DNA from: Klebsiella phage KpLz-2_45
Sequence record: MN871446.1
Strand: one strand, 5' to 3'
DNA: 64,000 nt
This document shows, piece by piece, positions 4,757 through 13,337 of this stretch. A program made the translations under genes and the position numbers. Every line of letters begins with the position of its first letter. Position 1 is the first letter of the stretch. The notes beneath the pieces were generated by a model. The model worked only from the letters and a program-made list of their open reading frames with translations, was not told the DNA's origin and did no database searches.

Positions 4757-5197
4757 CTATTTTTCAGGCGGTAGGCCGTTATTAAAACGGTTCGCTTCCA
4801 TCACCGGGAGATTCGCTTCTGTCGGGACGTAGATCACTTGGTTCTTAGTTTGCTGTAAGCTATCTACCCAAAGGTAACGGAGATACGCTTCGTTGTTCTT
4901 CAAGCTGTCACCAATGATCTTGTTCGCCTTGGCGACACCGCCTGCACGAATAACCTCTGCCTCCGCCAAACTTTTAGCGGACTCTTTCTTAGCCTCTGCT
5001 TCCTGTACGGCGATCTGACGATCCTGCGTGGCTTTCATCAGAGCGGCTTTCCCCGCCATCCCCTGCTGCCAAACATTGTAGTACGGGCACCCCGCCATCA
5101 GCAGCACTATAAACGCAACAATGCCGATGGCCGCCCATTTACCCACCTTCTTTAATAACGACTTTACGTCGAAATCATTATCAGCGTAACGATTCAT
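4757..5197 (-). CDS. SPFH/band-7 (prohibitin/HflC-like) membrane protein
   Basis: N-terminal transmembrane helix (WAAIGIVAFIVLLMAG). The C-terminal region QDRQIAVQEAEAKKESAKSLAEAEVIRAGGVAKANKI...NEAYLRYLWVDSL matches the Ala/Glu-rich SPFH C-terminal helix. Confidence 0.5.
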   Translation of the reverse strand: MNRYADNDFDVKSLLKKVGKWAAIGIVAFIVLLMAGCPYYNVWQQGMAGKAALMKATQDRQIAVQEAEAKKESAKSLAEAEVIRAGGVAKANKIIGDSLKNNEAYLRYLWVDSLQQTKNQVIYVPTEANLPVMEANRFNNGLPPEK

Positions 5198-5227: not shown

Positions 5228-5917
5228 TTATTTGTTGGTTTTGGTGATATACCACTTCCAAAGGCCGTAGAAAGCATTCATCAAGAATACTGCCCACTGT
5301 GCCACCTGCGCCCATGAACCCGGTTGATTAAGCGCCGGGATCACCCACAGATAAATCGTGACGCAGTTGATAATGATCCAGAGAATCCATTGTTCTGGCT
5401 GCTGCTTGATCATCATCCACATGGCGATGAGCGATGCGACTAAGCAGAACGCGTCTAATGCAGGAAACGGATCCTGCGTAGTTTTCAGGTATTCGGTCAG
5501 GCCATACCAGAAGATAACCCCAACAACCAGATAAGTTATCACGTCACGTAAAGTGATCGTTTTAACCGCTACGTCAGCTTTGGCTGGAGTTTTGCCCAGG
5601 TCTTTCGTCCAGTAATAAATACCGATAAACTGCATGGGAAGGTAAATAGCGTTCAACGCCGCATTGGCATAAAGGCCGGTATTGTACGAAACAATACCGT
5701 AGGTAATTACGCCAATCGTCCCCCAGTAATAATTAGAGACGCGACCCTTCGCCACCAGAATCACGCAGACGACGTTAGTCAGCGCTGCCGTGAATTCTAA
5801 CGGACTGGCTTGCCAGCTCCCTAATCCGACGACGATTAACGCTACGATCAGCCAAAAGTATTCGACTTTCTTCCAGTGCGCAAAGTCAGTGAAAGTTTTC
5901 ATTACCAATGAGTTCAT
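5228..5917 (-). CDS. pnuC: nicotinamide riboside transporter PnuC
   Basis: 229-aa polytopic membrane protein. It carries the PnuC signature blocks ...VILVAKGRVSNYYWGTIGVITYGIV... and ...WILWIIINCVTIYLW..., compared with E. coli PnuC SLEKISNYFFGLINV and WLLWVIINVISVV. Confidence 0.85.
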   Translation of the reverse strand: MNSLVMKTFTDFAHWKKVEYFWLIVALIVVGLGSWQASPLEFTAALTNVVCVILVAKGRVSNYYWGTIGVITYGIVSYNTGLYANAALNAIYLPMQFIGIYYWTKDLGKTPAKADVAVKTITLRDVITYLVVGVIFWYGLTEYLKTTQDPFPALDAFCLVASLIAMWMMIKQQPEQWILWIIINCVTIYLWVIPALNQPGSWAQVAQWAVFLMNAFYGLWKWYITKTNK

Positions 5918-6061: not shown

Positions 6062-7273
6062 TCATCCACCCCAATCAGCGGGGTTCTGATGAGAACCAGC
6101 CTCGATGCTTTCTACCATACTCCAATCTTTATCAAAGTTACCACCGCTGGCAGCAGGAGGGAACTTATTTGGAATTTCTGGAGCGCTCTGGCCGGCAGTG
6201 CCGTTACCGGATAACAAGTTATCAACCGCTTCACGTGATTGATCTAAACGACCTTTGTAAGAGTCCCCTTTAATGAATACAGTGCGCCCCCATGGTGTTT
6301 GGTTTTTAAATTCCCAAAGCATTTGTTGGAAGAGACTCTCTGTTTTCTCGCGGTCAGGATTCAGCCGCAGACCATCATCGACCCATGGTACTTCCGGCGA
6401 AAGAATCAACACGAGATCGTAATGCTCTTCAGCCGCGATAGCAGAAACAATAGGGTTAGGTTTACCCTCGTACAGCCGATGGTAATATTCCGTAATGAAG
6501 GCGTTCGTATCGATGAAACAGAGTCGATTAGAAGTACGTAATGCTTCCTCCTCCAGCTCTTTGTGACGATACGCAATCAACGGGTAGTCAGAACTACGGA
6601 GAGTCGCTTCCGAACCCGCTAAGACCGTTTCACAGTACGTACGGCCGTACTCTTCAACCCAGCTGGTATTGTAGAGTTTGGCGAGGTTCTTGACGAGGGA
6701 ACTTTTCCCAGAACTCTCAACGCCTAATACGACCACCCGCAAACAATAATCTTTACGGACAATGCTCGGGAGATATTCCCAATGGTCGTAAAGGTTTTCA
6801 CGGATCATCGTGGCGGAGATGGGGACGCGGGTACGGTTACTGTCAACGATAACGTGTTCTACAAAACCGAGGTGCGTTTTGTATTTTTCATCGTAATCCA
6901 GCTCGCTACTGAAAATAGCAATGCTCTGCGCCTGACTGTGATTAGCTGCCAGTCTACCTGCCTCGTTGAAAATCTTAGCGCCGAGCAGAGCAGCGTATTC
7001 TTTCCAGCCGTTCGGGTATTCCGGTACAGAAGCCTCATCAATGAAATCGATCGTGACGTGCTCTGTATCCGCGTAAGTCTGTTGCAGCCAGCGCAGACGA
7101 TTCTTGAAATTGAGTACCTTTTGGTCTCGTGGCGATTGTTTATCCAGCCAACGTTGGTCGTGGGAAAGAATGACGAGGACATGCTTAGACTGCACAGCAG
7201 CCTCTGTGATTAAGTTGATGTGCCCCAACGTAAGGGGTGCGAATTTACCGATTACTACGCCTAAGTCAAACAT
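6062..7273 (-). CDS. nadR: NadR-like bifunctional NMN adenylyltransferase / ribosylnicotinamide kinase, lacking the N-terminal HTH repressor domain
   Basis: Motif GKFAPLTLGH is the nucleotidyltransferase (H/T)xGH motif. ISATMIRE is the ISxTxIR motif. VVVLGVESSGKSSLV is the kinase-domain Walker A. The NMNAT and RNK domains are collinear with E. coli NadR. An extra C-terminal tail of about 50 aa is present. Confidence 0.9.
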   Translation of the reverse strand: MFDLGVVIGKFAPLTLGHINLITEAAVQSKHVLVILSHDQRWLDKQSPRDQKVLNFKNRLRWLQQTYADTEHVTIDFIDEASVPEYPNGWKEYAALLGAKIFNEAGRLAANHSQAQSIAIFSSELDYDEKYKTHLGFVEHVIVDSNRTRVPISATMIRENLYDHWEYLPSIVRKDYCLRVVVLGVESSGKSSLVKNLAKLYNTSWVEEYGRTYCETVLAGSEATLRSSDYPLIAYRHKELEEEALRTSNRLCFIDTNAFITEYYHRLYEGKPNPIVSAIAAEEHYDLVLILSPEVPWVDDGLRLNPDREKTESLFQQMLWEFKNQTPWGRTVFIKGDSYKGRLDQSREAVDNLLSGNGTAGQSAPEIPNKFPPAASGGNFDKDWSMVESIEAGSHQNPADWGG

Positions 7274-9548: not shown

Positions 9549-10175
9549 TCAATATAAGTTTTCGGAATAAAGTTCGTTGTTAATAATGATAACGTTGGGA
9601 CGTGTGGCGTTAATTTGTCCGGCGTGTTTCGCAATGACAAACGCGTCTTCTCGATTCCAATAACGATCCCATTGATCGATAAACCCTTGTCCGCTACCGT
9701 GCGGGAAATTGACAGGTTCTTCACCTGCCTTTGCTCGGAGGCGTTTGATCTCATCGCCGAGGATATGCTGTAGAAGCGAACCGTGGCGCGAAGAAGGAAT
9801 GACCAAAGGCTCTTCTTCTTTTAACCCCAGTGCTTCTCCGAGTCTTTCATTCGGTTTCACTGTTCCCCAGATATTTGCCGCTGAAACGATACGGACCTGA
9901 ACAAAGATACCTGGTGACGGCTCGTGTACGCAAATAGCCGGGAGGGTTGCTCTTTGTTCTTCAGTGAGTACTTCGTCATCAGCGTAGCCTTCCTCTTTAC
10001 GGAAATGAGATTCGGCTAATTGACACGACGCGAGGATATCCATGGCCAATTTGCGAGCAGAGTCGATATCAAACTCGTACTGCCCGCTCTTTAACTGAAT
10101 AACCTTATCATCGCGAATGTCGTAATCGCGGATATCTACTCGACTGTAGTCACCTTCATGAATCATTTTAGTCAT
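9549..10175 (-). CDS. hypothetical protein
   Basis: 208-aa ORF with no recognisable catalytic motif. Confidence 0.55.
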   Translation of the reverse strand: MTKMIHEGDYSRVDIRDYDIRDDKVIQLKSGQYEFDIDSARKLAMDILASCQLAESHFRKEEGYADDEVLTEEQRATLPAICVHEPSPGIFVQVRIVSAANIWGTVKPNERLGEALGLKEEEPLVIPSSRHGSLLQHILGDEIKRLRAKAGEEPVNFPHGSGQGFIDQWDRYWNREDAFVIAKHAGQINATRPNVIIINNELYSENLY

Positions 10176-10458
10176 TAAGATTCTTCCTCAAGGAAAGTTT
10201 CTGTCCCAGTTTGAGGGTGCGGATCGGAAGTTCGATTGACCCACACGCATTGGCGATAATGGTTCCTGTCGGTGTTCCGACCACCGCAGTGAATTCATCG
10301 GGATGTTTCTCAATCAACCCGATGCTGGCGGAGAACAGATCTTCATCGCGCGCGAGTAGATGTAAATCAGTTTCACTTACGATGTCGCCGATGTAAGGGT
10401 AATTTGGATTGCGGTCATAGGCGACAGTTGGAGACTGCTTGACTTTCTTTGCCGACAT
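10168..10458 (-). CDS. hypothetical protein
   Basis: 96-aa ORF overlapping both neighbours by a few nucleotides. Confidence 0.5.
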   Translation of the reverse strand: MSAKKVKQSPTVAYDRNPNYPYIGDIVSETDLHLLARDEDLFSASIGLIEKHPDEFTAVVGTPTGTIIANACGSIELPIRTLKLGQKLSLRKNLND

Positions 10459-10886
10459 TATTCCTTCCCTCCGGAGATAACCGAAAATGGGTTTGGTTTC
10501 TTAGTTTCTTTTACCGGTTCAGCGGGTTCGTCAGAACGCCCGTCAGCAGTGATGAGTTTTTGCGGGAGTTGAATCATCTGTTCCGGGTTATCAGGGTTAA
10601 ACATCTGAATGACGGACCCCCACGGGAAAGTGTCTGAGGCGAGTTTACCCCCGAAACGCCCTTCGAAGAACAACCCTTCGTCCAGTGAAGAAAGCTGACA
10701 GGAATGCGGAGAAACATTCAGTGTCAATACGTGATAACCCTGCATGTTAGGTACCGGTTTGACATATTGACGAAGAATGGGATTCACGGTGATTTCGGTA
10801 CCAAAGACCGTGATGTAAATACGACTGCCATTATCGATAAGCCAGCTATAACCTGCATCAAACAACGCTTTATTTAAAGAAGACAT
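10458..10886 (-). CDS. SspB-like protein (homolog of the ClpXP specificity-enhancing adaptor / stringent starvation protein B)
   Basis: Blocks shared with E. coli SspB: WLIDNGSRIYITV vs WLLDNQLTPHLVV; GYHVLTLNVSPHSCQLSSLDEGLFFEGRFGG vs GQIVLNIAPRAVGNLELANDEVRFNARFGG; SVIQMFNPDNP vs AVLAIYARENG. The C-terminal tail ...NPFSVISGGKE has no LRVVK-type ClpX-binding motif. Confidence 0.55.
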   Translation of the reverse strand: MSSLNKALFDAGYSWLIDNGSRIYITVFGTEITVNPILRQYVKPVPNMQGYHVLTLNVSPHSCQLSSLDEGLFFEGRFGGKLASDTFPWGSVIQMFNPDNPEQMIQLPQKLITADGRSDEPAEPVKETKKPNPFSVISGGKE

Positions 10887-10916
10887 GTGTTACTCCCGAT
10901 TGTTATTTAATTACCT

Positions 10917-11411
10917 TCACTCAGGTGATATAGATTTTAAAAGCCGTCGAGTTTCTTCCCAAAACTCCACTAACCATTCTCCGCTTTTAGGCGTAACAAC
11001 TTTAACGTCGTCTTCCCAGACACGCGCCCCTTTCTCCATTCGCCAATTACCGAAAACGTAGTAATGGGTAAAAGGTAGGGTTGAATTGACCAGCGCTTGG
11101 TATTGGTGTTTGTAAGTATTCAATTTCGCCAGATTAGCAGCTTTGATAATCGAGAGGAAATCGGGATGATGAACCACTTCCAGTTTCTTCCCAAATGCTT
11201 TCGCCTCGTTACCGTACAAGCCTCTGAGGTATTGGTGTTTAAAACCGGTTTTTGCGTAATACCAAAACCCTTCCATACTTTCAAAGTTTCCGTACTCAGG
11301 GTGAATGAAAGGTGTCTTTGGAAAGTGAGAGAGAAAGAACCCGAGACGGTTCTTGGACTTAGAGTAAATGTTGATGTGGTCAATACCGTCATTGTTTGGG
11401 TTCAAAGTCAT
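10917..11411 (-). CDS. NADAR (YbiA / DUF1768-like) domain protein
   Basis: INIYSKSKNRLGFFLSHFPKTP...ESMEGFWYYAKTG parallels YbiA INFYSTSDDYGDFSNF...TSEHYFQAQKF. IIKAANLAKLNTYKHQYQALVNST parallels ALRAKFEQHAELRALLLAT. The comparison relies on a recalled YbiA sequence. Confidence 0.45.
   Translation of the reverse strand: MTLNPNNDGIDHINIYSKSKNRLGFFLSHFPKTPFIHPEYGNFESMEGFWYYAKTGFKHQYLRGLYGNEAKAFGKKLEVVHHPDFLSIIKAANLAKLNTYKHQYQALVNSTLPFTHYYVFGNWRMEKGARVWEDDVKVVTPKSGEWLVEFWEETRRLLKSISPE
10925..10937 (-). promoter_or_regulatory. AAATCTATATCAC motif, 38 nt upstream of the 10886 ATG (the SspB-like gene)
   Basis: Intergenic, beginning 6 nt after the upstream stop codon. Confidence 0.35.
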
Positions 11412-12749: not shown

Positions 12750-13337
12750 TTATTTAACGCCTGATGAACCAAAGCCGTTAGTTCCGCGTTCTGACGATGC
12801 GCTGAACGCGGTCACCTCTTTCAAGTCCAGGTGCCAGATCGGTACCACGATCAGTTGCGCGATACGGTCACCGGGGTTGATAGTGAACGGAACGTCAGAA
12901 CGGTTCCAGGCGGGGATACCGATGATATTTTGGTAGTCGCTGTCGATAATGCCTGTCAGGTTACCCAAAACAATTCCGTTCTTGTACCCTAACCCGGAGC
13001 GCGGATGGGTATTCAACATGAAGTTCGGGTTATTCAGGTGAATAGCAACACCGGAGGAAATCATCTTGCATTCTCCCGGATTCAGTACAACAGGTTCATC
13101 GATTGCCGCCCGCAGATCGACCGCAGCAGAACCAGGGGTCGCGTAGTCCAGTTTACCCCATTCGCTCTCATAACGCGAGTCATGGTAGATAATTTCTGCT
13201 GGGATGAACTGACGCGGATCCGGGTCCGCGATACGAAAACGCTGAACGGTATCAACGGTAGATCCCAGCTGGGAGTGGTGTACGATAGTCCCTGTTTCGG
13301 TCTTAAAATAATTCAGGATTTCTTTTGGCTCAGACAT
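12750..13337 (-). CDS. dut: dUTP diphosphatase (dUTPase) with an N-terminal extension of about 50 aa
   Basis: Motifs PGSAAVDLRA, RSGLGYKNGIVLGNLTGIIDSDYQ, PGDRIAQLIVVPI and SERGTNGFGSSG correspond to dUTPase motifs I-V. Confidence 0.9.
   Translation of the reverse strand: MSEPKEILNYFKTETGTIVHHSQLGSTVDTVQRFRIADPDPRQFIPAEIIYHDSRYESEWGKLDYATPGSAAVDLRAAIDEPVVLNPGECKMISSGVAIHLNNPNFMLNTHPRSGLGYKNGIVLGNLTGIIDSDYQNIIGIPAWNRSDVPFTINPGDRIAQLIVVPIWHLDLKEVTAFSASSERGTNGFGSSGVK

Follow-up and report, generated by a model that had tools for sequence, protein, structure and literature searches.

The gene under study lies on the minus strand of a 64,000-nucleotide stretch of DNA from Klebsiella phage KpLz-2_45 (MN871446.1), called the window here. 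The open reading frame is real and the gene is intact (Table 1). A protein of phage MJ359 labelled 'Sspb-like stringent starvation protein' is 100% identical to its product. The stop codon of the SspB-like gene and the ATG of the following small ORF overlap, and translational coupling of the two genes is therefore probable. The sole family match of this 96-aa ORF is a weak one to PHROG 36327 (function unassigned), with no informative matches, and no counterpart of it is found directly downstream of the SspB-like gene in Serratia phage Moabite.

Table 1. Coordinates of the SspB-like gene, its predicted parts and neighbouring genes in the window
Feature	Position	Strand	Description	Basis
SspB-like CDS	10458..10886	minus	142 codons; ATG start, TAA stop at 10458-10460	ORF list
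Shine-Dalgarno GGGAG	10893..10897	minus	6 nt upstream of the SspB-like ATG	read from sequence
Predicted SspB-type substrate-binding domain	10551..10886	minus	residues 1 to ~112; helix at residues 4-18, then beta sandwich; signatures LNVSP (56-60) and FFEGRFGG (73-80)	model, Foldseek, HHalign, conserved positions
Insertion PVPNMQG	about 10734-10754		residues 45-51, just ahead of the conserved LN strand	
Predicted flexible linker	10494..10550	minus	residues 113-131 (ADGRSDEPAEPVKETKKP...)	low pLDDT, indels among homologs
C-terminal tail NPFSVISGGKE	10461..10493	minus	residues 132-142; core F-S-V-I-x resembling the ClpX-binding (XB) peptide, then GGKE extension	invariance in family and XB-variant series
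ORF of 96 aa	10168..10458	minus	overlaps SspB-like stop (TAATG)	ORF list and sequence
PHROG 839 protein	9549-10175	minus	208 aa, after the 96-aa ORF	
Upstream neighbour	10917-11411	minus	164 aa, PHROG 652	
Auxiliary metabolism genes	5228-5917, 6062-7273, 4757-5197, 12750-13337	minus	four genes of the same block	

The window is 96-99% identical to the ~300-kb Klebsiella jumbo phages KpLz_1_41, KpXa_1 and MJ359. The near-identical MJ359 has genes for a chimallin 'nuclear shell protein', for a PhuZ tubulin and for split multisubunit RNA polymerases, which marks the window phage as nucleus-forming. The SspB-like gene lies among small phage genes that form a block on the minus strand, between a YbiA-like gene and genes without assigned function. 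Unlike bacterial sspB it is phage-borne and stands outside any sspA-sspB operon, with no sspA adjacent.

The upstream neighbour shares 53% identity with Moabite gp214, whose annotation is YbiA-like N-glycosidase; the window counterpart has no Pfam match. The PHROG 839 protein, called T4_Y16D-like in relatives, is 38% identical to Moabite gp217. Moabite and two metagenomic jumbo-phage contigs keep its gene in synteny with the SspB-like gene. The order shared by the window and these two contigs (P0021 and P0022) is two DUF7941 genes, dUTPase/DCD, the SspB-like gene, the small overlapping ORF and the T4_Y16D-like gene, followed in the window and in P0022 by the gene for an NMN transporter. The products of the auxiliary metabolism genes, in the order of Table 1, are a PnuC-like NMN transporter (Pfam 3e-43), a nicotinamide-nucleotide adenylyltransferase (per the MJ359 annotation), a 146-aa PHROG 11227 'protease' and a dCTP deaminase/dUTPase-like protein. 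Synteny with Moabite is confined to the YbiA-like gene upstream and the PHROG 839 gene downstream, and the neighbours of more distant SspB-like loci are unrelated. A conserved neighbour was therefore rejected as partner of the SspB-like protein, given that no gene stays adjacent to it across clades. A tmRNA or tRNA partner within the window was also rejected, as ARAGORN finds none there.

Relationship to bacterial SspB

From the letters and ORF translations, the sequence-only reading had proposed that the protein is SspB-like, with a profile search of that family as a check. The proposed homology holds. The window protein matches PHROG 8945 ('SspB-like') at 4.8e-7, NCBIfam models of the ClpXP specificity-enhancing factor down to 2e-6 (best 27.8 bits against a cut-off of 135), and the sequences of H. 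influenzae SspB crystal structures in the PDB at 3.7e-4. The Pfam SspB family (PF04386) gives the window protein alone only 12.5 bits, under its gathering threshold of 27. It is matched singly by 8 of the 14 members of the phage family at E<=0.01 (best E 1.3e-9). When the 14 phage homologs are aligned as a profile with 42 canonical SspBs, HHalign reports a probability of 99.9% and an E-value of 1.2e-32 over residues 1-107.

The predicted structure agrees with this assignment. An AF2 model of the monomer has a mean pLDDT of 81, rising to about 90 over residues 11-110, and the top 13 PDB matches found with it by Foldseek are all SspB (E 1e-7 to 1e-5, target-normalised TM-score 0.65-0.81), with alpha-proteobacterial SspB orthologs ranking next. 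The fold is thus common to the window protein and the SspBs of E. coli and H. influenzae (PDB 1OX9, 1OU8, 8ET3; Foldseek E 1e-7), as are the signatures LN-SP and F-xRFGG and the arrangement of a domain, a linker and a hydrophobic C-terminal peptide. The three collinear blocks of the sequence-only reading are recovered as WLIDN/WLLDN, LNVSP/LNIAP and FFEGRFGG/FNARFGG, except that its third pattern reads SV...F..DN in the phage protein and not literally AV...Y..DN.

By these profile and model comparisons the window protein is a genuine relative of the SspB family. It is only about 20-25% identical to bacterial SspB, and its scores fall below the curated cut-offs even though 8 of 14 relatives match Pfam SspB, so on sequence grounds it is classed as a divergent family member and not as an equivalog of bacterial SspB.

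Conservation within the domain is concentrated at positions of likely functional importance. Of the 14 positions with at least 75% conservation among 76 canonical SspBs, 12 carry the same residue in the window protein (A16, Y18, W20, V32, L53, N54, S56, F72, R75, F76, G78 and P86 in E. coli numbering). The cryo-EM study of a delivery complex describes high conservation in SspB for the dimer interface and the ssrA groove alone (PMC9963277). Judged by this conservation, the groove and dimer surfaces appear to be retained. The N-terminal helix of the monomer model is homologous to the SspB dimerisation helix.

Other features may point to some change in what is bound. The wider phage family does not conserve R75 and P86, whereas W89, P98 and N5 are invariants specific to it, and binding specificity may therefore have shifted; the cargo may be something other than the ssrA tag. 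The insertion PVPNMQG is found in the Klebsiella-phage clade and is missing in the Moabite clade and in bacterial SspBs. Its presence could reshape the mouth of the peptide groove.

[quoted passage not shown]

In the AF2 model order ends at about residue 112, and all that follows is disordered. The linker has a pLDDT of 38-58 and no secondary structure. It is about 20 residues long, against about 45 in bacterial SspB, and among homologs the segment that follows the domain ranges from 19 to about 45 residues, with variable sequence and indels. The tail behaves very differently. N132, P133, F134, S135, V136, I137, G139, G140, K141 and E142 do not vary among the family members (14 of 14), whose overall identity is only 32-72%, and NPFSVI-x-GGKE is unchanged even in homologs that are ~30% identical in the folded domain. 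No other part of the protein is as conserved as the tail. Its invariance beside a variable linker, in proteins whose domains share only 32-72% identity, is the pattern expected of a functional peptide at the C-terminal end of a flexible leash, the design of SspB. Self-docking, with the tail lying in the groove of its own domain, was considered and rejected, as the model keeps the tail disordered.

The sequence-only reading had stated that the C-terminus lacks any peptide like LRVVK, and had proposed a 'tail-less' SspB that sequesters ssrA-tagged proteins without a tether to ClpX. The literal string LRVVK is indeed absent, the tail being NPFSVISGGKE in place of the RPALRVVK of bacterial SspB, and SspB dimers deprived of their tails have very low affinity for ClpX (PMC9963277). 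The invariant tail nevertheless speaks against the wider statement, since its F-S-V-I core fits the pattern of the ClpX-binding (XB) peptide. Domain, disordered linker and conserved C-terminal peptide are all present, a functionless tail would not remain invariant at 30% domain identity, a strictly conserved peptide follows a variable linker, and orthologs have canonical XB endings. A tail-less sequestrator is accordingly very improbable. What survives of the objection is that the window tail has Ser in place of Lys and is a weak match to XB, and that binding to ClpX is inferred.

To place the tail among its relatives, 166 sequences were collected. A profile search of 1.84 billion cluster representatives gave 492 matches at E<1e-3, of which the best 150 were taken. 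A canonical XB ending, L/F-x-V/I-V/I-K-COOH, is present in 83 of the 166 relatives. Another 26 have the XB core a few residues before the end, and in 32 the core is followed by G-G-K/R (one G-G-L). Tails of alpha-proteobacterial type are found among the remainder. All long contigs checked for proteins with a GGK tail look phage-like, being unidirectional arrays of small ORFs, mostly without assigned function.

A matrix built from the 83 canonical tails has L (89%) or F (11%) at position -4, S in 13% at position -3, V in 42% at position -2, and V (81%) or I (16%) at position -1. Since F, S, V and I each occur in canonical tails, F-S-V-I lies within natural XB variation. The best 9-mer of the window tail scores 3.1 bits (p about 1e-3 per 9-mer, with about 30 positions tested). 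The position of the XB 'K' is Lys in 86% of canonical tails and never Ser, which is the residue in the window. Among the tails compared it is S, D, K, E or F, with Asp in close relatives and Lys in tails of the Moabite type.

Several relatives fill the interval between the window tail and the canonical peptide. The Moabite-type tail RPNPFSVIK-GGKE scores 9.0 bits on the XB matrix, the C-terminus of phiKZ gp232 (PKLTVIKGGKK; GTPKLTVIK-GGKK) 17.7 bits, and that of the metagenomic relative P0103 (KPKLTVVKGGKE, RKPKLTVVK-GGKE) 22.4 bits. Another relative (P0038) ends in NPFSIVK-COOH. The strongest evidence comes from positional orthologs on the two syntenic metagenomic jumbo-phage contigs, which end in NPFTVVK-COOH (P0022, 144 kb) and in NPFTVVDGGKE-COOH (P0021, 264 kb). 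On account of this alternation at one position in the gene order, the GGKE tail is read as a variant of the XB module and not as its absence.

An extension beyond the core is compatible with docking. [quoted passage not shown] Since XB-GGS still binds, an extension that starts with Gly-Gly is not expected to block docking. Short extensions past the XB peptide are also present in several natural SspBs. In PDB 2DS8, L161 and V164 of the XB peptide are reported to occupy pockets of the ClpX N-domain.

GGKE is more strictly conserved than the position of the XB 'K', which hints at an additional or different contact. To our knowledge GGKE has no established role in ClpX binding. A similar sequence lies within the linker of host SspBs. 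In E. coli SspB (sequence verified against chain Y of 8ET3), residues 127-139 form a conserved island, (E)TVMSVIDGD(K/R)PD, inside a linker that is supposedly non-conserved. Over 74 distinct enterobacterial sequences (Enterobacterales sspB loci, L015-L094) column identity is 86-100% in the island, with 65% for the K/R column, and 22-54% in the linker columns ahead of it. The island resembles the phage tail FSVIDGGKE and scores poorly on the canonical XB matrix. We know of no function described for the island. In the work of Wah 2003 and Dougan 2003 it is reportedly insufficient to tether SspB after deletion of the XB peptide.

Two alternative interpretations of the tail follow from these observations, and both are doubtful. 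In one, the SspB fold has been repurposed and the tail binds a phage or host partner other than ClpX, NPFSVI-x-GGKE being equivalent to the island MSVIDGDKPD. GGKE is invariant where the XB 'K' position varies (S/D/K/E/F), the tail matches the island at S-V-I-D-G-x-K while the island itself scores -9.8 bits on the XB matrix, and the window tail is a weak XB match at its 3.1 bits. Opposed to this are the GGK extensions that follow perfectly canonical XB cores in P0103 and phiKZ gp232, and the alternation of the syntenic endings NPFTVVK-COOH and NPFTVVDGGKE, which speaks for a single motif family. There is also no conserved candidate partner gene beside the SspB-like gene across clades. In the other, equally tentative interpretation, F/L-x-V/I-V/I-x-G-G-K is a distinct docking peptide, mostly phage-borne, whose contact with ClpX or with a host factor differs from that of XB and which appears related to the enterobacterial island. 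The pattern occurs in 32 of the 166 sequences retrieved, phiKZ gp232 among them. If it were a distinct peptide, tighter binding or a second site would be possible, nucleus-forming phages might turn the ClpXP of the cytoplasm to their own ends (host defence or regulatory proteins could be destroyed, for instance), and a second functional motif in host SspB would be implied.

ClpX as the predicted partner

Searches with tblastn for ClpX, the ClpX zinc-binding domain and ClpP gave no match below E 0.2 in MJ359 (1-291 kb) and the window. A phage-encoded ClpX or ClpP was thus rejected as partner within this range, with all tblastn matches at E>0.2 and the annotated 'ATPases' of generic AAA type. 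Four MJ359 proteins of ~390-460 aa carry that annotation (L096:29263-32229, L100:15140-22478). Two of the four were scanned against Pfam and have weak generic AAA matches, and none of the four has a CxxC zinc-finger motif. Because no phage ClpX or ClpP was found in the range searched, the partner is likely host ClpX. Klebsiella SspBs end in the canonical RGGRPALRVVK, and the N-domain of host ClpX would therefore recognise a peptide of the XB class.

On balance it seems probable, from the sequence comparisons and the model, that the SspB-like protein is a complete tethering adaptor for host ClpXP. The protein would probably form a dimer, with the groove of its domain holding a peptide signal of the cargo. 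The F-S-V-I core of the tail would dock on host ClpX by forming a beta-strand against its zinc-binding N-domain, in the manner of LRVVK, the XB peptide of SspB, and two leashed tails on ClpX N-domains would raise the local concentration of cargo at the pore and so promote its degradation. The cargo could be ssrA-tagged products, which are expected to be abundant at host shut-off and whose clearance would recycle amino acids; it could alternatively be a specific host or phage protein. With the N-domains occupied, substrates that need them would also be degraded less by ClpXP.

This last effect is the basis of a different interpretation, in which the protein is a blocker or decoy of the ClpX N-domain. 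Docking of the tail, whether or not ssrA tags are bound, would then out-compete host adaptors and substrates that depend on the N-domain, and so shield phage proteins or host regulators. Free XB peptide hinders ClpXP in degrading lambda O and FtsZ (PMC3983244), the tail is the best-conserved part of the protein, and productive hand-off could have been lost through changes in the domain that are peculiar to the phage proteins. A pure blocker has no need of the signature residues of the peptide groove, however, and these are kept under selection; canonical SspB tethers and delivers with the same parts. Blocking as the main function is considered unlikely, and a tethering adaptor remains the preferred interpretation.

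SspB-like proteins in other phages

The sequence-only reading had also regarded the gene as unusual phage cargo. This impression does not survive a wider search. A tblastn search with E. coli SspB yields 78 phage records, phage SspB-like proteins have a PHROG family of their own, and the MJ359 copy is annotated as such. The records include phiKZ gp232, PA7, KTN4, SL2 and the Erwinia RAY/Ea35-70 group, as well as Xanthomonas RTH11, LucasX, the Ralstonia FLC phages and pf16. The fold of the model matches proteins of PA7, PhiPA3, 201phi2-1, Phabio, Noxifer, Psa21, Rebecca and PhiEaH1. A scan of IMG/VR with the family profile finds only FBKp24 and a Moabite-like phage. Among jumbo phages that encode chimallin, SspB-like genes recur (phiKZ, PA7, 201phi2-1, PhiPA3 and RAY).

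The Moabite protein gp216 (annotated 'stringent starvation protein B family protein') and its own relatives are true orthologs with syntenic neighbours. The Moabite tail, NPFSVIKGGKE, is one residue off the window tail and has Lys where the window has Ser at the XB 'K'. The Moabite clade differs from the window protein in its longer linker and in lacking the 7-residue insertion, and its domain is about 30% identical.

The SspB-like proteins of the other nucleus-forming jumbo phages (phiKZ gp232, RAY gp39, PA7, PhiPA3 gp270 and 201phi2-1; PHROG 8945) have the same fold and are 135 to 373 aa long. They were not found by tblastn from the window protein, as the similarity is too low. The tail of phiKZ gp232 (L101:1171-2079, PKLTVIKGGKK) is of the same type as that of the window protein, an XB core plus GGK, whereas RAY gp39 (L102:1201-1653, KPTLTVVK) ends in a canonical LTVVK-COOH. 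Two other loci were examined (L104:1201-1608, L103:1195-1734). The tail of Ralstonia FLC4-3B gp94 is GFLSVVK, and that of Xanthomonas RTH11 is alpha-proteobacterial-like (...VRTVDFRAPRKPKS). The phiKZ protein is diffuse outside the phage nucleus (PMC10449902). Both RAY gp39 and phiKZ gp232 are cytoplasmic and so share the compartment of ClpXP.

Pseudomonas phage pf16 gp18 is, like the window gene, a phage-encoded SspB. It is a recent copy of a host SspB (53% identical to E. coli SspB) in a T4-like phage, whereas the window protein comes from a jumbo-phage lineage that is old and diverged. It has been proposed, by modelling only, that pf16 gp18 modulates host ClpXP or RseA (PMC5587285). A functional test of any phage SspB-like protein was not found in the literature, where published mentions are few.

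The gene was already recognisable from public annotation. The small new detail is the tail class that joins an XB core to GGKE, together with its enterobacterial look-alike. The annotation should accordingly read SspB-family adaptor with a variant ClpX-binding tail, and not tail-less inhibitor. The phiKZ-like nucleus-forming jumbo phages widely encode SspB-like adaptors. If these adaptors are plugged into host ClpXP, cytoplasmic proteolysis would be reprogrammed while the phage DNA is shielded in the phage nucleus.
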